From a virus, in the IMG/VR virus record IMGVR_UViG_3300045988_176431, positions 1 to 64,000 of that record: 64,000 nt of DNA. One strand, written 5' to 3'. How positions within the stretch are numbered: position 1 is the first letter of the stretch; each line of letters begins with the position of its first letter. Shown in pieces: positions 471-64,000 of this stretch. The position numbers and the translations under genes were made by a program. The notes beneath the pieces are model-generated. The model made no database searches. It was not told the DNA's origin and saw only the letters and a program-made list of their open reading frames with translations.

Positions 471-3400
471 AGCTTTTGCTGCACCACCAACAAGTTCTTT
501 ACCTTTATTAATAGCACCTCCAACAAGTTTTTTAGCACCACCAATAAGCCCACCAGAACTAACATCTTTCATCTTTGATGTGTCAATAGCATCTTCATGA
601 ACAAAGCCTAAATCTTTACCATTTTTGCTTTTTACTTGCCATGTACCATCATCATTCTTTGTGTAAGTATTTCCTTTATCATCCTGATATGCTTTATTAC
701 CAACTAAAGCATTTTTTCCTCGATGATATAACCATCCTGCACCTTTTGAAATGGCACCACCTACTTTATCAGAGATACCACCATTTACTCTTGTATTATA
801 AGTATCGAAGTCTTCTTTATCAATTTTATATTTATTAGTTTTTACACCTTCTTTAAAATCTTTATAACTTAGATCTTTACTGATAATCCCAGCCTTTTTC
901 TGTGTTTCATATTGAGCTTTTATTGTTTTATCTTGATCTTTTTCAAAAACTTTTACGAATTTCTTTTGGTTTACTCTCAATTTCTCATAAGATTTACCAC
1001 CATCATTTTTAAAGAAATTATACATAGCACCTAAGATTGTATCTCTTAAGTTTATTGGTTCAAAGAAATCAAGAATAACATCGATTACTGCTCCAATGGT
1101 TGTACCACAACAAAGTCCCCATGCAGCACCAATTAACCTCATAGTCCAGTCAGTATCTTCTTTTGCTACTTTAAATAACTTTGATGCACATGTCGCACCA
1201 TCAATAGCACCACCAAGTGCAAAAACAACTTCACTAAGTCCGGCACTTGCTCCAGCTAAAGCTCCATGTTCTCCAAAAACTTTTGCTAACTTACCACTAA
1301 TCTTAGGAAATTTTTTCTTCAACATTTCGATTATTTGTTTTGGTCCGCATTTACTAAAAAGCTGTTTAATTTTACCTGGTTCTTTTCCAGATTTTTCTGT
1401 AAGTTTTTTAATCAAGTTACTAAAAAATTCTTCGACCATTCCAGCAATTTTTTTAAAGAAACCACCAGAAGCTTTATTATCAGTGGCTTTTTTAGAAAGA
1501 CTCTTTCCTGCATCTTTCATTTTATTAACTATTTTTTTTGCACCTTCGGTTGCTTTACCTTTTACTTCTGTTTTTACAGTATTTTTAAAACTATCCACTT
1601 CGTTTCTTATATTAGTTACGGCTTTTCCTGGCTTTGAATTTTTCACTTTATTTCGTAAAGAATTCTCAGCAGTATCTAATGTATTTCGGACTTTCTGTAC
1701 CTTTTTACCAGCTTTAGATTCAGAAAGAGTTTTCTTTATATTCTTTTTCTTATCACTTTTCCATTTTTTAAATCCTTTTTCATTTTTATTTAATTTAAAA
1801 TCATCATTACCAGGAACAAAAAAATCATCAGCATGTTCTTTAGTCCATCTCTTATTAGATACTCCTTTCATGTTATCCCAATCTTCTTGAGAGATAACTT
1901 TTCGTCCATCTTTAAGAGAATAAGTTTTTGTTTTTTTATCATATACTAAATGATTTTTCTTTGCATCTCTAGTAAATTTTTCATAATCACTAGGTTTTCC
2001 ATGAATTATACGTTTAATTGCTCTACCTGGTGCTTTAATTACTTTCTCAGCACCACGCATTACTTTTTTAGCTTTTTTAGTAGTCTTTGTAAAGCTCTTA
2101 TTATATCTATTATGATAATTTACAATCGTCTTACCTATAAGATTAGTTCGTTCATGAGTACTTCCTGTAGTAGAACCGTCTTCATTTAATCCTAAAGGAT
2201 TTGTTACAATGCCTTTAACATTATCTTTTATTGCTTCAGGTATACTCTTTCCATCTTTTTGAGCACCTATACCATCATTGGTTCCGGATTGATCGATTGT
2301 ATTACCGATAGTCATTCCAAGACCTTTAGCAACACTCTCTAAAATATTTTTCAAAGTTTCCCAAATTCCTGGGAATTTAGCCATAAGTACTAATAAACCA
2401 GCAGTAATAAGACCTTTTTTACTAAAGATATTATCCCAACTTAAGAAATGACTTTTACTCTGTTCATTTCCTTCACCGATTTTATCTTTAATAGCACCAA
2501 ATAACCCTTTATACTCTTTATCTTTTTCTCCCTCTTTCTCAGCTTCTTTTTTCTTTTGCTGAGATTCGAAAGAACCTTCGTTTTTAGCATTTGCTAAATC
2601 AGCAGCATTATCAGCATCAATAATTGCTTCTTTTTTAGCAGAACTATCTTTGATATCATCAACATCTGATGTATCTGCGTTTTCTTTAATTAAATTACCC
2701 TCTTCATCATAGTCTGCATCTGAATTTGCTTTTGTTTTCATAACAGCAATATCATCTGCTTCACTATCATCTTCAGAAGAATTATTTGGACCTCCAACAA
2801 ATGGAATTCCCATTCCGAAGTTTTTCAATCTTCCTTTAATACCGTTAATTCCACCACCAAAACTTGGTGTAGCACCATTAACAGAAGGACCATCGGTTCC
2901 TTTTAATTTACTTATTACACTACTAGCAATACCTTGTACAAATACTTTGATACCATTGCCTTTTTGTGACAGAATTTTACCTTTTGCTTTTGGTGTAAAG
3001 ATTTCTGCGGCACTTGGATCAGATCCACCATCACCAACGAGATATGATTCACCATCATTTACATCTCCACCATTTGCTCTGGCTTTTCCTTTTCTATTAA
3101 AGAAACCTTTTACCTTACCAATTGCATTTTTTGACTTTTCTTTGAAATTGGCAAATGTTTCAGAAGCCTTTCCTTTAATATAATTAATGAAACCACCGGC
3201 TTCTTCAAATTTTTGCTTTAATTCATCAATCTTAGAAATTGCTCCACTTTCTTCATCTTCATTCTCATTATCTTTATCTTCACTATCTTTTTTTTCTTTC
3301 TCATTTTTCTCAGCATCTGAATCACTTTTACCTGATTGATTCATCTTACCTACACCAAAGGCTGGTTTATCACCAGTGAAAAATGATACAAGTCTTTCAA

Positions 3401-37138: not shown

Positions 37139-37913
37139 TGTTGTAAATAGCACCCTTATCTAGTAATAGATATTGAAAAACCTATCTAATTGCGGGGAAC
37201 TCTCGTTAGGTCTTAACTACTAACTCAAGATTATTATTTGAGGGCAAAGGGTAATTCCGGAGATATAGTAAAAAGGTTAAGAATAGAGACAATCGACGCA
37301 GCGAAGTTTATTCTAAAAAATAAATAATATGAAATATAAAGAATCAATAATTTTTATAAACGGTGAAAAAAACAAATTATTTAGTTAATACAAAAGGTGA
37401 TGTTATTTCTTTATGTTATAGAGGTATACCTAATAATAGGCATATTATGAAATGAGTAAATTATCTGAATCAGATGTTAAAAATATTTGTAAATTGTTAA
37501 AAAGTAATGTAAATCCAACTGACATTGCAAATAAATTAAATATATCAAGATCAAGTGTTTATAGTATTAAATATAAAAAAACTTGGAGAAGAATATCTGA
37601 TAAGTATTTAAAAGGAAGTGATAAAAAATGATTAGAAATAATATTCGCCGTTTATATTTAAATTATATTATTTAAATATAGAATAAATAAGTTCAACGAC
37701 TATCGAAAGTATAGGTTAAGAGAAATACTTAACTGAATAAACGAGTAGAGTAGACCAGGAGTCTGGGTGCACGAAATTGGTGCTTTACGAAATGGTAGGC
37801 TCCTTATATTTGGTAACAGAATATAAGGATGAAGATATAGTCTAGTATCTCATGGCGACATGAGGAAGTTTATTATAAAACTGGGTTATTTAACGAATAA
37901 TCTGAATACAACG
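37139..37913 (+). ncRNA. group I self-splicing intron (with ORF-bearing insertion)
   Basis: P1: exon GGUGU (37134-37138) pairs with GCACC (37150-37154), with U.G at 37138. Terminal G at 37913. Shares the core (ctatctaattgcggggaactctcgtta, agagacaatcgacgcag, ttcaacgactatcgaaag, gagtagagtagaccag..ctgggtg, gatatagtct, GNRA-capped hairpin 37849-37864) with the two other copies. Splicing restores GEFGVGLTVTNALS. Confidence 0.8.
37452..37631 (+). CDS. intron-encoded 59-aa helix-turn-helix ORF (probable homing-endonuclease remnant)
   Basis: MSKLSESDVKNICKLLKSNVNPTDIANKLNISRSSVYSIKYKKTWRRISDKYLKGSDKK resembles the C-terminal HTH module (LTExDVxxIRxL...IAxxxGVSRSTISxIxxxKTWKHI) of phage HNH-type homing endonucleases. 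No nuclease domain is present. Confidence 0.5.
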   Translation: MSKLSESDVKNICKLLKSNVNPTDIANKLNISRSSVYSIKYKKTWRRISDKYLKGSDKK

Positions 37914-40047
37914 AGGATTGACAGTAACTAATGCCCTCAGTTCATATTTTAAGTTAGCAACATATAGAAATGATTATGTTCATATTATTGAGTTTGAAGA
38001 GGGTAAAAAGATTAATGATGTGAATCGTCCTTTGAAAAAAGGAGAAAAGAAACATGGAACCATTACTGAATTTACTGTAAATGAAAAATATATGGGAAAG
38101 AATTCATCTCTTCCAATTGATACAGTAGTAGATTGGATTGATATGATGACTTATCAAATATCTGCTAAGATTAAAATCACAGTAGATATTTACGATGGTA
38201 TTAATCGAGTAGAAACAAAGAAATTTAAGGCTAGACCATTTGGTAAAATCATTGAGAAATTCGTTCCTGATATTAAGAAAGTTTTCTATGATCCAATTAT
38301 TTTATCTGGTGATTCTAGTATTGTTGAAACAATTACAGATTCAACGATTGATAGTAAAACGGATAAAGTAAAAGTAAAAGATAAGAAAGTGAAAAAAGAT
38401 ATTCATTTGGATGTTGTATTTACACATGATGATACACCAGAAAATGATTATGTATCTTTCTGTAATTTTACAAAGACAGATGAGGGTGGTGTTCATTTAG
38501 ATTCTGTTGAAGAGGTTGTTTGTCGTTTCTTCCAACAGAAAACAAAATCTTTTATGACAGATAAAGAAAAAGAGAAATGGGACATTACTTGGGCAGATAT
38601 TAAGTATGGACTTAAGATGGTTGTAAATCTTTCAACAAGTGCACAAGTTCAGTTTATGGGTAATGCAAAGAATAAAATTCAGAACGCTGAATTAAAACCG
38701 ATTCTGAAAGAAATCATTAATACTGAATTAACGAAGTATTATGAAAAGAATGAAGGAAAGATTCAAAGTATATGTAAACTGATTAAGTTGAATGCAAGAG
38801 CACGTGTAGAATCTCAGAAAGTTCGTACAGCAACGAAGATTCAAAAATTAGACCGTTTTGATGAACTTTCAATTCCTAACTATGTAAGTTGTAATAACAG
38901 AGGAAAGAAGTATAAAGAATTATTCCTTGTAGAGGGTGAACGTTCTGCAACAGGTTCTGTTCGTAATGGTAGAAATCACGATACACAGGCAATCTTTGGA
39001 TTCCGAGGTGTGACAAAGAATCCATATAAATGTAGTGTAAGCGAAGTTCTAAGTAACAACGAGTGGAAGAACTTTATAAAGGTATTAAGAACTGGATTCG
39101 GAAAAGATTTTGATATTAATAAATTATATTATGACAAAATCATTTTGTTAACAGATGCCGATATTGATGGATTTTATATTTCATCTGGTATTTGTGCATT
39201 TATTGCACTTCTTATGCCAGAGATTATTACAGAGGGTCATTTATACAAAGTATATCCACCATTATATCAGATTAAGGATGGAAAGAAATTTAAGTTCTTA
39301 AATTCAAAATCTGATTTAACAGAAGAATTCATGAAGAAAGTTACAAAGAAATATAAGATTTATCTTCAAGGAGATAAGAATCCTTTATCAAAGGATGAAC
39401 TTTTTGAGTTCTTATATGACACGCTTGAGTATTATAATGATTTGAAAGACCTTGGTAAATATTTCTCAGTGGATAAATATTTCATTGAGAGAGTTGCTAA
39501 CTTCTTATTAATTAATGATATTCACAAAGCAACAAATGTAGATAAGTATTTAGAAAGTAATAAATTCGTTACTTCTTTTATGAACTATTTACAGAAAGAA
39601 TATCCAGAAGTAAATCTGGAAAAGAAAAATCGTTTACGTGGTGTAGTAGAAGGACAGATTGCATCAATTAAGATAAACGATAGAAATCTTAAGAAGTTCT
39701 CTGATTTTGAGAATATCTTTAAAGATTATGGTTATGAAATCGTGATCGAAAATAAGGATACAAAGGAAAAGAGAACAATTACAGTCGGTAGATTTATGGA
39801 GGAAACTTATCCATTACGTCCAGATATTTATAGCCGATTTAAAGGACTTGGTGAAACTGATGCTGAAGATATGGGTAAAACTACGCTAGATCCAGAGAAT
39901 CGAATCTTAGTTCAACTTACGATGGATGATGCAAAAGAAGCATTGAAAATCTTTAATAAGTTAAATGGTAATAAAAAGAAGGATTCTGAACTTCGAAAAG
40001 AAATGATGCGTCAGTATAAGATTGATAAAGAAAATCTGGATAACTAA
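37914..40047 (+). CDS. type II DNA topoisomerase ATPase/TOPRIM subunit, exon 2
   Basis: Continues (V)GLTVTNALS, then the transducer region, TOPRIM LFLVEGERSATGS and LLTDADIDGFYI, and C-terminal GLGETDAEDM. Exons sum to 2502 nt (833 aa). Confidence 0.85.
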
Positions 40048-52757: not shown

Positions 52758-53140
52758 CAATTTATTTTATTCATATAAGTTCGTTATACTTATATCTGTT
52801 TTTATACAGCTATACTTCTCAGTATAGATTAGACTATATCTTCATCCTTATATTCTATTACCAAACATAAAGAGCCTACCATTTCGTAAAGCACCAATTT
52901 CGTGCACCCAGACTTCTGGTCTACTCTACTCAGTTATTCATATATAGATTTCTCTATATACTATCCTTTCGATAGTCGTTGAACATTCCTAATTGTTATT
53001 AGGCTTTGCTGCGGATTGTCTCTATCCTTAACGTTTTTACTATATTTTCAATATTAGTAGGTAAGACTTAACGAGAGTTCCCCGCAATTAGATAGGTTTT
53101 CCTTAAAAGTTTATGCAACTTTCTCACGCCCAGTGATTTT
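52758..53140 (-). ncRNA. group I self-splicing intron
   Basis: P1: exon ACGCCU (rc of 53141-53146) pairs with GGGCGU (rc of 53126-53131), with U.G at the junction and a 9-nt loop. Terminal G (rc of 52758). The core is nearly identical to the topoisomerase intron (e.g. gagtagagtagaccagaagtctgggtgcacgaaattggtgctttacgaaatggtaggct). Confidence 0.8.
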
Positions 53141-57836: not shown

Positions 57837-57924
57837 TGATATATACAGAAATACGATTTTCAATTCTAAATAACTGAGAAAACAAAGATATAACGTAATT
57901 GAAATATGAAAGTAGGTGAAAAAT

Positions 57925-60900
57925 ATGTACTTTGTAAACGATTTACCTTATTTAAAAGCAGTTCGTAAAAAAGCTTTTTTGCCAAAGGGTCAACCGATAT
58001 CACAAGGTAATTTAATTTTTCTATTTTCACCATCGATTGAAAAATCATTTGAAATGATCAATGATGAGACAACTGTCCCAAATGGTGGAAAATATTTTTG
58101 GTATTTTTATAACTTATTATATCGAGGAACCATTTATGGAAAACGATATCTTTATCGTGATATGAAAGAAAGACTTGCGATATATAAGCGAGTACCAAAA
58201 GAAACAAATATACGTTCTTATGCAACTAAACCAATTATTAGTGGTACAGAAAAAAGAAACACATATTATGAATTAGCTAGATATTATGAAATATTTAATC
58301 AATATTCAAGTAAATTAAATGCAGTAAAATTGGTTGATTGTTTTTGGAAATACTTTACTCCTATCTTTAAAGATCAATATGGATATTTAGATCATAAATA
58401 TGTCTTAATTAATGCAAATAACTTTAAAGATTTTAAAGGGGATAAATTAAGAGACCAGTTAAATAATCCTTTGTTTTTGATTTATTATACTTTGTGGAAA
58501 CAATTTGATTTGATTGCTGAGTTGGATATTGATTTCATTATTTATGCAAATGGAAAAATCATGAGATTTAACCCATCTAAATGTGATGAAAAATCTTATC
58601 GAATATATCTTAGAGAATTAAAAAAGATATATTCAGTTGCTACAGTTCCAATTGAGACAATTGCTGAAGAAGAAATTAATACTGAGGAAGAAGAAAAAGA
58701 AGAGGAACCGAGAGTAAAGTTTAAATCAGAAAAAATGTCTGTTACTAAAAAAACAGCATTACCAATTGTAGATAAAATTACGGCGGTAGCAACAAAATTG
58801 TCAGCATCTTCAAAAAAGAAGATTGAACAAAAGGTAATTCATAAAGTTTCTTCTGTATCATCTACTATGAATGTCGATAAGATAAAAGATGATGAAAAGA
58901 AAAAAGAGGTTGTAAAAGAAATTCAAAAGAAAGTAGAAGATGAAATTAATACAGATGAAGATGTGATTAAAGAAGTATATAATACAATGCAAAAAGAATT
59001 TGTACCAAAATCAACTTCACGTTCTACTGCTAGAGATAATCTTTTACGAGAAGAACAGAAGAAGTTGAATATCAAAGGTTCAACTTTAAAATCTATTGAA
59101 AAACAAAAAGATGTTGATATTGAAACAACAGATATTACTCAGAATGTAAAAAGCACAAATGAGAATACAAAAATAATCAAGTTTAATAACTTTAATAAAA
59201 CTTATAACGATAAGCTTTTAAATAAAGATATTATGGATTGCTTTACTCAATTGAATAATAAGTCAATTAAGATGTTTATCCGAAATGTCGATATAGAAGA
59301 TACTTCAGATGAATTGAATTATAAAGAAACTTGGACGGTTAAGTTAGAGGATGAAAACAGAAATCGTCATACAATAAAAGTAGATATTCCTAAATTCTTA
59401 GAGTATAAATTTTTATGGCTCGGTGGTAATAGAAAGAATATAAAGAATCAGATGTTCTTTTTACCATTTGTAAAGATTGATAAAGACCGTGTTCTTATTG
59501 TATCTAATTATAATAAGTTTACAATTCAACGAGTGGATACAAAGTCTTTAAGGGGTCTTTCTCGAATTGAAACATTTATTCAGAAATCAGATTCTTTTAA
59601 AGATTACTTTATTTCAGGTAATACTTTCTTTGAAAATAAAGATTTTATTACAGCAATTGAATATGATGAATTTGGAAAGAGTTTTCGTAAATTCCATAAA
59701 TCTCAAACAACGATTTACTTCAGTCAGGTAGAAGCAAAGCATGAGATGGAAAAGAAAATGATAAAGATTAAATCAAATGAAATGTTCATTGGTTTTGAAA
59801 AGGGTGAACCACTTATCCTTAATATTAAAACACAGAAAGATAAAAAGAATCGTGGTATTGTCGATATCATTTTAGATACGATGGATGAAACTCAATTAAA
59901 AGAGTATAAATCTATTAAAACGCCAAAACGGTTGATGCATACTCAGATTACAACAATGAAACAGGATTGTCCACTTATTATCATGCTTTGTATTTGGGAA
60001 GGACTTAGTACGGTATTAAAGAAAGCAAAGATTAAATATCGTTTAGGTGCAAGCATTCGTGATATGAAAGTAAACGAAGATTATATTCGTTTCAAGAATT
60101 GCTATTTGATTTATGAAGATGATATTGAATCTGAATTATTAATCAATGGATTGAAGTTATTAGATACTGCTTCACATGATATTGGTGAATATGAGACACA
60201 AGAAGTTTATCTTCCATATGTTGAAAGGAAATATGGTAGAATAAACGCTATTAATACATTAAATAATGCTTATGAATTTATGCTAGGTTCAATTGAAATA
60301 TCTTTATTAAAAGATATGAATCTTCCAACGGATATTGTATCTCTTTGTATTCATGCAAATGAAGTACTCTGTGATAATCAATACGACAATGAGTTAGTTC
60401 AAACACATTCTCGTATTCGTTGTAATGAAATTATTCCTGCAATTCTTTATGATAAGATTGCAAAAGCTTATACACCATTTAAGAACTCAAATGGTAAAAA
60501 GAAATTATCAATTCCACAAGATTGTGTCATTAAAGAAATTTTAAAGCAAAAAACAGTAGAAGATTATGATTCATTAAATCCTTTATTGGAACTTGAAACG
60601 AATCATGGTGTATCAACAAAAGGATTTCGTGGAATTAATTTGGAGCAGTCTTATAGTGTTCCAAAACGTTGTTATGATGATAGTATGATTGGTGTTATAG
60701 GACCATCTTCATCTCCAGATGGAAATGTAGGTGTAAATCGTTCTCTTACGATGGAACCAAATATTAAAACAGCAAGGGGATATGTAGAAGTAAAGAAAGA
60801 TAATTTGAATGAGGTAAAAGATGTTAATCTTTTCTCTCCAGCAGAACTTTTAATTCCTCTTGGTGTAACACGAGATGATCCAGTTCGAACTGGACATAGT

Positions 60901-61872
60901 GTAAAACAGTCTCGTCATACAATTCCTGTTGTAAAATCTTCACCTGTCCTTATTTCAAATGGTTCAGATGAAATGTGTAAATATTACTTATCTTCTGATT
61001 TTGTTGTAAATGCAAAAATGGATGGTAAAGTAGTTGAAAATGACCCTTCAACAAAAATTATGGTTGTTGAATATAAGGATGGAACTCATCAAGCAATTGA
61101 TTTAGGAAAGAAACTTGCAAAAAATGGTGGTGGAGGTTTTGAATTATCAAATCAATTAATCACAAACTTAACCGTTGGTTCCAGATTTAAAAAGAATGAT
61201 ACACTTGCATGGCATAAAAATTTCTTTAAAAACGATAAATACCAAGGAACACGTTTATGTGTTGGTACATTAGCGAAAGTAGCAATAACTTCTTCTTATA
61301 ATACTTATGAAGATGGTACTTTTGTGACACATGGATTTTCAGAAAAAGCAACAACTGAAATGTGTTTTAAAAAACCTGTCGTAATTGGAAGACACTCAAA
61401 TGTATCTCAGATGGTATCAGTTGGTCAATCAATTAATACTGGTGACCCATTGATTCAGTTTGATGACTCTTTTGAAGAAGCCAATATTAACGTTCTTCTT
61501 AATTCACTTGGTGATAATGAAGAATTAAAGGATGCCGTTATTTCGAATAATAGAAATATTGTAAAATCGAAATATTCTGGTGTAATAGAAGAGATTAAAA
61601 TGTATTCTACAGCAGATTTAGAAGATTTGTCTCCGAGTTTACAAAAAATCTTTAAAAGATATTATGATAAGATAAATAATAGAAAGAAAGTATTGAAAAA
61701 ATACAATGAAAAAGATGGAATTGTGTATTGTGGAATGATGATTAATGAACCTACTGGTAAAGTAGAACCAAATCGTTATGGAACAATACGTGGTGAGAAA
61801 GTAAATGATGGTGTGTTAATTGAGTTTTATATTAAACATCAGGAACCACTAGAAGTTGGTTCCAAAATCGCT
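57925..61872 (+). CDS. multisubunit-RNA-polymerase beta-like subunit, exon 1
   Basis: ATG after AGGTGA. GFRGINLEQSY..RCYDDSMIGVIGPSSSPDGNVGVNRSL aligns with beta RDVH.SHYGR.CPIETPEG.NIGLI.SL. DDPVRTGHSVKQSRHTIPV aligns with DDANRALMGSNMQRQAVP. Ends EVGSKIA, aligning with GDKMA. About 700 aa at the N-terminus have no recognisable similarity. Confidence 0.75.
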
Positions 61873-62224
61873 TAAAGTTAGGTGATTTAAAACTTACCTA
61901 ATTGCGGGAAACTCTCGTTAAGTTCTAGTTACTAACTTATGATAGTAATATACATAAGGGCAAGGGGTAACTCCTAAGGTATAGTAAAAAAACTAGAAAT
62001 AGAGACAATCGACGCAGGGAAGTATCTCTTATGAGATATGGCTTCAACGACTATCGAAAGGATAATATATAGAGAAATCTATATATGAATAACTGAGTAG
62101 AGTAGACCAGTTAATCTGGGTGTACGTTATTGGTACTTTACGAAACGGTAAGTGTTATAAATATGGTAATAGTATTTATAATAAAGATATAGTCTATTCT
62201 ATATAGTGATATATAGTATTAAAG
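61873..62224 (+). ncRNA. group I self-splicing intron (ORF-less)
   Basis: P1: exon UCGCU (61868-61872) pairs with GGUGA (61881-61885), with U.G at 61872. Begins with in-frame TAA and ends in G at 62224. Shares the core with the two other copies. GNRA-capped hairpin ctatata gtga tatatag at 62199-62216. Confidence 0.75.
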
Positions 62225-63157
62225 AATTTTACAGCTTTGAAGAATGTAATTGGTGAAGTTGTTGAAAAAGGTTATGAACCTTATTCTGAATTTAGACCAG
62301 ATGAAGAAATTTCAACATTTATTGCATCAAACTCAATTCTATCACGTATGACACCATCTATTCTTTTAAATGGATTTGGTAATAAATGTATTATCGAATT
62401 AAAACGTGCTTTACAAGATATTTGGGATTCAGTATCAGACTTTGCAGTAAGACGTAATACTATGGAATCATTAATTTATCGATTCTTTACGGCATTTGAT
62501 AAGTCAGGTACTAATACAAAACATTATAAAGAAATCTTTTCTTCTATGTCAGATAATCAATTCCAGACTTATTTTAGAGATTTCTTTGCAGATGAAGATA
62601 AGTATTTAATTCTTACAATTGTAGATTACGAAAGAACGATAAAAATGGAAGATATTAGAAGAGCAGCAAAAGTTCTTAATATACCTTTATATGAATATAT
62701 ATTCATACCACACTTAAATCATAATAAAGAACATCCTATTGTGAGTCCTGCAAAAGTTCCTGTTATTTATATTAATATCAAGAGAACACAGCAGACAGTA
62801 GCAAAGAAAAATGGTTTAAGTACAAATGTAGACGAACGTAGTGCTCTTACTGGTCAGGTGGTACGTCATGATAAAAATGGTAGAGAATCTGATCTTGAAA
62901 ATATCATGCTAACATCACTTGGACTTGATAATTGCTTAAAAGAATTAAATGGACCAAGAGCAGATGATTTAGTGATGAAACAACAGATGAATCAATCAAT
63001 TAATTCAAAAGGATATGTTAAATTATCTGATTTGGATGATAAGATTGAAAATAAAACAACATTGAATACCGTAGATACTTATTTCTTAGGAATGGGTCTT
63101 AAGACAGACTTAGTTACAAAAGGATTAAAAACAATATCTACGTTACGAAAAGAATAA
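62225..63157 (+). CDS. multisubunit-RNA-polymerase beta-like subunit, exon 2
   Basis: Splicing gives GSKIA|NFTALKNVIGEVV with the same spacing as GDKMAGRHGNKGVISKI. Then ASNSILSRMTPSILLNG (LNPLGVPSRMNIGQILE) and LTGQVVRHDKNGRESDLENIML...RADD (GGQRFGEMEVWAL...SDD). Confidence 0.75.
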   Translation, partial: NFTALKNVIGEVVEKGYEPYSEFRPDEEISTFIASNSILSRMTPSILLNGFGNKCIIELKRALQDIWDSVSDFAVRRNTMESLIYRFFTAFDKSGTNTKHYKEIFSSMSDNQFQTYFRDFFADEDKYLILTIVDYERTIKMEDIRRAAKVLNIPLYEYIFIPHLNHNKEHPIVSPAKVPVIYINIKRTQQTVAKKNGLSTNVDERSALTGQVVRHDKNGRESDLENIMLTSLGLDNCLKELNGPRADDLVMKQQMNQSINSKGYVKLSDLDDKIENKTTLNTVDTYFLGMGLKTDLVTKGLKTISTLRKE

Positions 63158-63163
63158 AAAAGA

Positions 63164-63205
63164 AAAATGTAGAACTGAACATTTTCGTTCAGTTCTACAT
63201 TTTAT
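63164..63205. terminator. bidirectional terminator
   Basis: 17-bp stem aaaatgtagaactgaac/gttcagttctacatttt. Confidence 0.75.
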
Positions 63206-63718
63206 TTATTTTCTGTTTTTGTTATTTTTGTTCTTATTTTTATTTTGCTGATTATTTTGTTTGTTGTTTGTTACAGGTTTTTCTTCTTTAACAACTTCTT
63301 CAACAGATTCTTCAGGAGCCTCTTCAACGACATCTACTGTTTCTGATTCTTCTGCTTCTGGTTCAGCAACAACTGTTTTTTCTTCTGTAACGTTTTCTGT
63401 TGATTTCTCCTCTTCAACAGAAGATTCATTTTTTTCTGGTTCATTAACAACTTCCTTCTTTTCATTTTCCTTTACGGATTCAACAACAGGTTTAGTAGCC
63501 TGAGTTTCAAAGTTATTGTTTTTTACATTGGTGAGTTCCAATTTTACTTGATCATCTGTATTATATGGATTACATTCAAATACAGAGCGTCCATTACTAA
63601 TCATTTTAATGATTACTTTAAGATCAATTTTAGTTGGTACCAAAATTGGACCACATACGAAATTTAATTCAGGAATTGGACCTGAATCTTTCACTACTAC
63701 TAATTTACGTTCTTTCAT
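63206..63718 (-). CDS. hypothetical protein with E/V-rich and N/K-rich low-complexity C-terminus
   Basis: Start 63718 after GTGAGG. 170 aa. Confidence 0.7.
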   Translation of the reverse strand: MKERKLVVVKDSGPIPELNFVCGPILVPTKIDLKVIIKMISNGRSVFECNPYNTDDQVKLELTNVKNNNFETQATKPVVESVKENEKKEVVNEPEKNESSVEEEKSTENVTEEKTVVAEPEAEESETVDVVEEAPEESVEEVVKEEKPVTNNKQNNQQNKNKNKNNKNRK

Positions 63719-63719
63719 T

Positions 63720-63992
63720 TTATAAATCCTCACTTTCTTCATCTTCTATATCATCACTCAGACCCATCACATCGTCAATAGACATATCATGATCTGCTTG
63801 AGCAATTCTATTAATTTCTTCATTTCTGTCTGCATCATCATCTGGAATCTGATCAATCGCATCATCCAATTGCTCATCTGTAAATTCCGTAGAATCAAAT
63901 GCATCAGGACACATATGTTTTACCGAATCTATGGCATCGTTGATTTCTGCATCTTCGACAATACATTTTGTATACTCCATATCTCTGACCAT
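63720..63992 (-). CDS. very acidic hypothetical protein (start near the window edge)
   Basis: 90-aa D/E-rich ORF. The true start cannot be checked because the window ends at 64000. Confidence 0.55.
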   Translation of the reverse strand: MVRDMEYTKCIVEDAEINDAIDSVKHMCPDAFDSTEFTDEQLDDAIDQIPDDDADRNEEINRIAQADHDMSIDDVMGLSDDIEDEESEDL

Positions 63993-64000
63993 CTCAGCTC

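Follow-up and report, generated by a model that had tools for sequence, protein, structure and literature searches.

An ORF-less group I intron at the GDK...KG segment of a virion RNA polymerase beta-like gene from a likely jumbo phage

The window analyzed here is a 64,000-nt stretch of viral DNA, comprising positions 1 to 64,000 of IMG/VR record IMGVR_UViG_3300045988_176431. Near its end lies a gene for a virion RNA polymerase (RNAP) beta-like protein whose reading frame is interrupted by a 352-nt element (Table 1). The ORF upstream of the interruption (57916-61875, plus strand) encodes 1319 aa when read from a GTG and 1316 aa when read from the ATG at 57925, the likely true start, which has an AGGTGA Shine-Dalgarno sequence 7 nt upstream. 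Both PHROG families matched by this ORF, 3148 and 14872, are annotated as 'RNA polymerase beta subunit'. PHROG 3233 covers most of the reading frame downstream of the interruption; other phages encode it separately, as a small 'RNAP beta' gene.

Searches with single sequences were uninformative. A Pfam search with the protein of each exon alone gave no match, and phmmer against the PDB with single sequences returned only noise (lipase, adiponectin), so profiles were required (PHROG and a profile of 42 homologues). Homologues of the protein carry PF00562. The 42-homologue profile matched solved bacterial beta chains with an E-value of 1e-10, and its segment 'levgdKianftalKgvigevipegkepy' aligned with the bacterial beta GDKxxxRHGxKG segment. 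The intron therefore falls between the codons equivalent to A and G of the bacterial motif. This agrees with the original prediction, made from the DNA alone, which had located the element in the beta GDK-A-RHGNKG segment with bacterial residue spacing and had expected C-terminal beta motifs to follow in frame; these motifs (..PY.E.. and ..SRM..) are present in exon 2. The window clade has GSK...ALKN (61858-61872 and 62225-62245) in place of the near-universal GDK...(A)LKG, with only the two lysines kept, while more distant homologues retain GDK...ALKG. The host motif is thus already divergent in the window, and that it matters for function here is an assumption based on homology.

The nearest deposited relatives, at 34-38% identity, are the virion RNAP beta proteins of Staphylococcus jumbo phages, PBS1/AR9, Listeria phage LPJP1 and Yersinia phage phiR1-37. 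No deposited phage was matched by the gene in a megablast search. As part of the explanation that fits the locus best as a whole, the source phage is very probably AT-rich and of the jumbo type, with PBS1/AR9 and the Staphylococcus jumbo phages as its relatives.

The interrupting element is a group I intron. In a local Rfam scan, 61873-62224 (plus strand) matched RF00028 over the full length of the model (1-253), scoring 61.3 bits against a gathering score of 50 (E 5.6e-15). Rfam scans of the whole window, at the gathering threshold and at an E-value of 0.01, reported only an intron in the terminase gene and missed this one, probably an effect of the speed filters, which are applied more strictly to long inputs than to short ones. 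Single-sequence folding gave an MFE z-score of -3.8 and recovered most of the helices modelled below. The G+C content of the intron is 31%, compared to 29% for the window. An intron-encoded homing endonuclease ORF was looked for in 61873-62224 and was absent, the longest ORFs on both strands being 36, 28 and 20 aa. The original prediction of an ORF-less group I intron with these ends, opened by the TAA that closes the 1319-aa ORF, is thus borne out by the Rfam match, the folding z-score, the lack of any ORF above 36 aa, and the P3-P9 covariation model and RNAalifold folding presented below. Within the intron, a match to the AilA thermometer was dismissed, as it scored 27 bits against a gathering score of 81. 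Matches to mir-71 and CsrC elsewhere in the window were also dismissed, with scores far under gathering.

We placed the exon junction from protein data alone and applied the RNA pairing rules afterwards. A homologue search with the spliced C-terminal 629 aa listed 120 protein clusters, 109 of which were collinear over EVGSKIA/NFTALKN with zero indels, and six of which terminated precisely at the last residue of exon 1. The intron-less cluster P0001 reads across the junction as EVGSKIANFTALKN, also given as LEVGSKIANFTALKN. PHROG 14872 continues from one exon to the other, with its positions 374-1323 on exon 1 and 1326-1391 on exon 2. Joining 61872 to 62225 yields the nucleotide junction ...AAAATCGCT/AATTTTACAG... 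and keeps the frame (phase 0), giving a predicted product that reads ...EVGSKIA/NFTALKNVIGEVV... and measures 1626 aa from ATG 57925 or 1629 aa from GTG 57916.

The RNA pairings meet at the same positions. All six exon bases at the 5' splice site pair with the internal guide, and the start of exon 2 pairs along its full hexamer with the P10 guide (Table 1). Among random hexamers of the window, only 2.4% matched the P1 score and 1.6% the P10 score. The Rfam alignment assigned P1 to a hairpin of the exon, GGAACC...GGUUCC, and included a P2 that is spurious; both were rejected, the guide-sequence P1 being preferred because it fits the protein-defined junction and covaries. Protein collinearity, RNA pairing and the covariation of the same-site introns described below, three lines that are independent of each other, place the splice sites exactly at 61872/61873 and 62224/62225. 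This retains most of what had been proposed before, namely the U.G pair at 61872 with the UCGCU/GGUGA pairing, the AAAG end at 62224 (here backed by omega-G G62224 and six of six P10 pairs) and the in-frame join to a 1626-aa product, as counted from ATG 57925. Only the length of P1 needed correction, from 5 bp to the 6 bp of AUCGCU/GGUGAU.

Group I introns at this same codon boundary were found eight times (n=8: window, L133 and L001-L006), the additional ones coming from the contigs of six truncated homologues and one IMG/VR contig. The insertion point was identical in all, separating the codons for ..K(I/L/M)(A/T) from those for (N/Y/F)F.., with U.G at the 5' splice site and, in the five complete introns, omega-G. 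In each of the eight, the first codon of the intron is an in-frame stop (TAA, TGA or TAG). The P1 exon and guide strands change together: they read AUCGCU/GGUGAU in the window, L133 and L003, AUGACU/GGUCAU in L001, CUGGCU/GGUCAG in L002, AUCGCU/GGCGAU in L004 and L005, and CUCGCU/GGCGAG in L006. P10 covaries as well, with GAAAUA/UAUUUC in L001 and AAAAUU/AAUUUU in L005. The introns are not uniform in their architecture. The L001 intron is shorter, at 284 nt, and L002 and L005 have a P7.1/P7.2 arrangement unlike that of the window.

The intron of L002, a distant relative, contains a 255-aa HNH/NUMOD4 homing-endonuclease ORF (2439-3206) in its P6 loop, the position that is also taken by a probably decayed ORF in the third intron of the window. 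This suggests that the GDK site is or was a homing target, and the ORF-less intron found here may derive from a mobile form of the HNH-bearing L002 kind. Among deposited phages, 21 records gave a detectable match, and every one of them runs unbroken over the insertion site, while eight metagenomic contigs were occupied.

A structure model comprising P3, P4, P5, P5a-b-c, P6/P6a, P7, P7.1, P7.2, P8 and P9 was built manually from the sequence and the Rfam alignment. To test it, ten introns of the family, taken from the window and two IMG/VR contigs, were aligned with MAFFT (374 columns). Standard pairs occupied 93.5% of the cells, compared to 34-46% when the partners were slid by 1-3 columns, and compensatory changes on both sides were seen in 33 of the 88 pairs, compared to 3-8 in the slid controls. 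None of 500 shuffles attained the observed covariation score. Without the manual model, RNAalifold recovered P3, P4, P5, P5a-c, P6, P6a, P7.1, both P7.2 hairpins and P8. Most compensatory changes fall in P3, P5a, P5b, the P7.2 hairpins and P8. No variation occurs in P4 or P7 anywhere in the family, so these two helices are backed by conservation and not by covariation. The P7 strands GACUA/UAGUC were identical and 100% paired in all ten members, and RNAalifold also offers a competing invariant helix, CUAUCG/YGAGUAG. We presume P7 to be the guanosine-binding helix.

The roughly 95 nt between 62054 and 62146 fold into P7.1 and two P7.2 hairpins, all with compensatory changes. An outer P7.2 stem, GUAGA/UUUAC, is tentative; it is invariant and is missing from L001. 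In the Michel and Westhof classification, subgroup IA, to which most phage introns belong, is recognized by a P7.1/P7.2 insertion between P7 and P3'. Since P7.1 and P7.2 lie here between the 5' strand of P7 and the 3' strand of P3, we assign the intron to the IA type.

Table 1. Coordinates of the interrupted gene, the elements of its intron and the two related introns in the window.
Feature	Coordinates	Strand	Evidence or remarks
Exon 1, virion RNAP beta-like	57925..61872	+	PHROG 3148 E 2.5e-128 and PHROG 14872 E 3.2e-116; both reach residue 1318/1319
ORF-less group I intron, 352 nt, subgroup IA type, with P7.1/P7.2, without P2	61873..62224	+	RF00028; pairing and covariation; no ORF >36 aa
In-frame TAA, first intron codon	61873..61875	+	Would halt translation of unspliced RNA at residue 1316/1319
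P1 5' strand, exon AUCGCU	61867..61872	+	5' splice site after U61872; 6/6 pairs; covaries in 8 same-site introns
Internal guide GGUGAU (P1 3' strand)	61881..61886	+	6/6 pairs with exon, including U61872.G61881
P10 guide AAAGUU	61874..61879	+	6/6 pairs with exon-2 start AAUUUU (62225-62230); covaries in L001 and L005
P3 5' strand ACUUACC	61892..61898	+	Pairs with GGUAAGU (62147-62153); 7 bp, 4/7 compensatory
P4-P5 domain	61903..62016	+	Same helices in MFE folding and RNAalifold
P4	61903-61908 with 62009-62016	+	Invariant
P5	61913-61916 with 62002-62005	+	1 compensatory pair
P5a	61923-61930 with 61991-61998	+	5 compensatory pairs
P5b	61936-61941 with 61953-61958	+	3 compensatory pairs
P5c	61964-61967 with 61971-61974	+	Part of P4-P5 domain
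P6 and P6a hairpin	62017..62043	+	Second P6 pair G-C here, C-G in other 9; P6a 2 compensatory
P7 5' strand GACUA	62049..62053	+	Pairs with UAGUC (62190-62194); proposed pseudoknot with P3; matches Rfam consensus GACUA...AAGAUAUAGUC
P7.1 hairpin, GAAA loop	62065-62086	+	2 compensatory pairs
P7.2 region, two hairpins CCAG/CUGG (a) and GUAC/GUAC (b)	62102-62141	+	Hairpin a 3/4, hairpin b 2/4 compensatory
P8 hairpin, 10 bp	62154..62182	+	6/10 pairs compensatory
J8/7 and P7 3' strand AAAGAUAUAGUC	62183..62194	+	Most conserved core element
P9 hairpin CUAUAUA-GUGA-UAUAUAG	62199..62216	+	7 bp, GNRA loop; aligns poorly across family, 66% paired
Omega-G, last intron nucleotide	62224..62224	+	G terminal in 5/5 complete same-site introns
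Exon 2, 310 aa plus stop (63155-63157)	62225..63157	+	Residues 2-67 continue PHROG 14872 at 1326-1391; residues 76-297 match PHROG 3233
Second intron, terminase large subunit	53140-52758	-	Rfam 86.2 bits; exons 54049-53141 and 52757-51468
Third intron, topoisomerase II large subunit (GyrB-like)	~37139-37916	+	Family profile

We modelled the spliced C-terminal 629 aa with AlphaFold2 (pLDDT 79.4, pTM 0.72). The junction falls at model residues 319/320, inside a confident beta-hairpin with strands at 317-320 and 324-332 (block pLDDT 92 and 86). The top Foldseek match of the model was chain C of the AR9 nvRNAP core (7S00_C; E 3e-24, TM 0.57), followed by the beta chains of E. coli and other bacteria (E ~1e-23). 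Compared with RNAP beta in this way, and through the profile alignment, the predicted spliced protein is beta-like.

These data bear on the reading in which the gene is truly split and remains unspliced, yielding a 1316-aa N-terminal subunit and a separately initiated C-terminal subunit like the split beta of phiKZ and AR9. Such an organization is possible in principle, since the beta subunits of jumbo phages are naturally split in relatives, and a TTG is present at 62237. However, the break would fall within the conserved beta-hairpin of the active-site motif, where the 109 collinear clusters among the 120 listed are uninterrupted, and it is occupied by a full covarying group I ribozyme whose guides match these very exon ends. 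Exon 2 also shows no sign of being a gene of its own: it has no Shine-Dalgarno sequence, and neither promoter-like nor terminator-like sites exceed what is expected by chance. The splits known from relatives lie elsewhere, near residue 1000 in L003, which has a 23-nt spacer, and near residue 1390 in L001 and L002, which have a separate PHROG 3233 gene. We consider a truly split, unspliced gene extremely unlikely.

The reading that we favor, and regard as very probable, is that 61873-62224 is a functional ORF-less phage intron of the IA type, inserted in phase 0 into a virion RNAP beta-like gene. In the proposed mechanism, which is the one usual for group I introns, the pre-mRNA would fold so that the exon bases AUCGCU pair with the guide GGUGAU in P1, presenting U61872. 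An exogenous guanosine bound in P7 would then attack after U61872 and cleave the 5' splice site. With the 3' exon aligned by P10 (AAAGUU/AAUUUU), omega-G62224 would replace the cofactor, and the freed 3'-OH would attack after G62224, ligating the exons in phase 0 as ...GSKIA and NFTALKN.... Because the intron opens with TAA, ribosomes on the unspliced RNA would stop there. Only the spliced mRNA would encode all 1626 aa, with the GxK....K.VI hairpin of the active site unbroken and the C-terminal domains of beta included. Judging from the sequence, splicing would take place in vivo through the catalytic activity of the intron, and the full-length protein would depend on it.

The direct orthologue of the intron is found in L133 (IMGVR_UViG_3300045988_176405, 249 kb), at L133 2150-2506. 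Over window positions 59724-64000, the two sequences share 96.8% identity. Identity is 99.6% in exon 1 (last 2000 nt), 95.7% in exon 2 and 90.2% in the intron. The two introns differ in 35 columns, and the differences affect 12 modelled pairs. Eight of these pairs stay canonical, five of them by double changes; the remaining four are at hairpin tips or result from alignment shifts. Such preservation of pairing fits a structurally constrained ribozyme and not a decaying spacer.

The same comparison is relevant to the alternative that the element is a decaying, catalytically dead remnant, in which case the gene would be a pseudogene or splicing would need a protein cofactor or maturase in trans. 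A homing endonuclease ORF was indeed lost or never present, and the Rfam score is below that of the terminase intron (61 versus 86 bits). Many group I introns also require chaperones in vivo. Yet the core elements are all intact, and the differences from the L133 orthologue keep the pairing via compensatory changes. Moreover, both exons are open and 96-99.6% identical to those of L133, and the host gene encodes a core virion RNAP subunit. A dead or trans-dependent remnant is thus very unlikely, and we retain the interpretation of a functional intron.

Subgroup IA introns of phages include those in T4 td, nrdB and nrdD, in the DNA polymerase genes of SPO1/SP82, and in Twort. The window intron shares with these the P7.1/P7.2 domain between P7 and P3' and the conserved AAGAUAUAGUC core. 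They are also alike in interrupting conserved motifs of essential genes and in having an early in-frame stop. The window intron differs from them in having no P2, in its large P5abc-like extension, and in its host gene and phage lineage.

Introns in RNAP genes have been found in several jumbo phages. The AR9 gene g189, a tblastn match of the window gene annotated as 'virion RNAP subunit, pfam00562', has a CDS joined from six pieces with an HNH endonuclease in one of the gaps. The gene is orthologous and likewise interrupted by introns, and AR9 is also a low-GC jumbo phage belonging to this lineage. However, g189 is continuous over the GDK site, with a single tblastn piece spanning the junction, and the AR9 introns are located elsewhere. 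At least one AR9 intron carries a homing endonuclease, whereas the window intron has no ORF. Furthermore, g189 corresponds only to the N-terminal part of beta, while the window gene, once spliced, would cover the N-terminal, middle and C-terminal parts. PhiPA3 contains the group I intron of gp210 in its virion RNAP beta gene (gp211/209, the orthologue of phiKZ gp178; Birkholz et al. 2024, PMC11620839). There too, a group I intron interrupts a highly conserved catalytic-region motif of a jumbo-phage virion RNAP beta-like gene, but it is inserted after the conserved DD, equivalent to E. coli D675 (PMC11620839), and not in the GDK...KG segment. In addition, gp210 is an HNH endonuclease with nicking activity and acts against a co-infecting phage by interference (PMC11620839), while the window intron is ORF-less. 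Many intron-disrupted RNAP subunit genes have been described in MarsHill-like Staphylococcus phages, citing AR9, and gut jumbo phages have a mean of 18 group I introns per genome.

Introns in the RNAP genes of jumbo phages are therefore already well documented, and the GDK...KG insertion site appears to be new. The GDK...KG nucleotide-binding hairpin would join the conserved RNAP motifs that are hit by phage introns. Our result implies no conceptual change, as intron-rich RNAP genes are known in AR9-like, Staphylococcus and phiKZ-like jumbo phages. Its practical consequence is for annotation: the 1316-aa and 306-310-aa ORFs should be merged as one predicted 1626-aa virion RNAP beta-like protein. 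Gene callers cut this protein short, as in the six database clusters that end at the junction. The series of ORF-less, HNH-bearing and short introns at the GDK site could be used to study the gain and loss of homing endonucleases.

After splicing, the beta-like subunit of the window would be one 1626-aa polypeptide (57925-63157), whereas relatives encode it in two or three genes. It has been proposed that the splits in jumbo-phage RNAP genes arose through intron activity (PMC7598289), and the unsplit subunit described here bears on that idea. Neither of the split points seen in the relatives coincides with the intron site of the window. In Staphylococcus phage vB_StaM_PB50 (OR770614.1, 210588-211982), the middle part of virion RNAP beta is annotated as two CDSs. 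Only ~130 nt separate the two, less than a typical group I intron would take up.

The intron is not the only one of its kind in the window. The original prediction had described it as homologous to two other introns, and an nhmmer search of the window with a profile of the intron family found exactly three members: 61873-62224 (+), ~53140-52758 (-) and ~37139-37916 (+). An exact 13-mer from the J8/7-P7 3' core, AAGATATAGTCTA, is common to all three. The terminase intron has P1 CACGCCU/GGGCGUG and P10 GGUGAU/AUCACU, and it also forms a P2 hairpin, with additional hairpins downstream of P9. For its 3' splice site, a position after G52758 is more plausible than the Rfam end at 52810, since the latter would give a premature stop. 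The topoisomerase intron has ~350 nt inserted in its P6 loop, containing only short broken ORFs, and this insert is probably a decayed homing endonuclease gene. We tentatively place its splice sites after 37138 and after G37916, with P1 GGUGU/GCACC.

Segments of these introns show different affinities. In the intron of the beta-like gene, the guide, P3', P8 and P9 are 100% identical to the same-site orthologue of L133, the P5b/c segment is 98% identical to two introns at other sites (L069a and L069b), and the P7/P7.1 segment is 98% identical to the terminase intron of the window. The P4-P6 segment of the L133 intron is 100% identical to yet another intron, L089b. Between the window and L133, the intron is more diverged (90% identity) than exon 1 (99.6%). 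These mosaic identities suggest module exchange or gene conversion between co-resident introns within a genome. That the family as a whole exchanges its modules (P5bc, P4-P6 and P7.1) by gene conversion, with each intron keeping its own guide and P9 ends, is a possibility that we regard as rather doubtful. If true, the ORF-less group I introns of these jumbo phages would undergo concerted evolution inside each genome, and they may colonize new sites, the RNAP GDK motif among them, by core swaps onto new guides and not by classical endonuclease-driven homing.

Whether the intron does more than splice itself out can be considered in this context. Splicing could be a regulatory step that times or limits the virion RNAP beta-like subunit, instead of being constitutive and neutral. 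An in-frame stop is kept as the first codon in 8/8 same-site introns, and several divergent phages are occupied at the GDK site. However, phage introns commonly have an in-frame stop close to their start, as in T4 td. Since 109 of the 120 listed clusters and all 21 matching deposited phages do without the intron, it is dispensable, and the co-resident introns behave like a selfish, recombining family. A regulatory role is thus barely credible. The family can also be unusually dense: the IMG/VR fragment L089 (1-3019) packs five of its introns into 2.4 kb, with exons of just ~60-130 nt between them.
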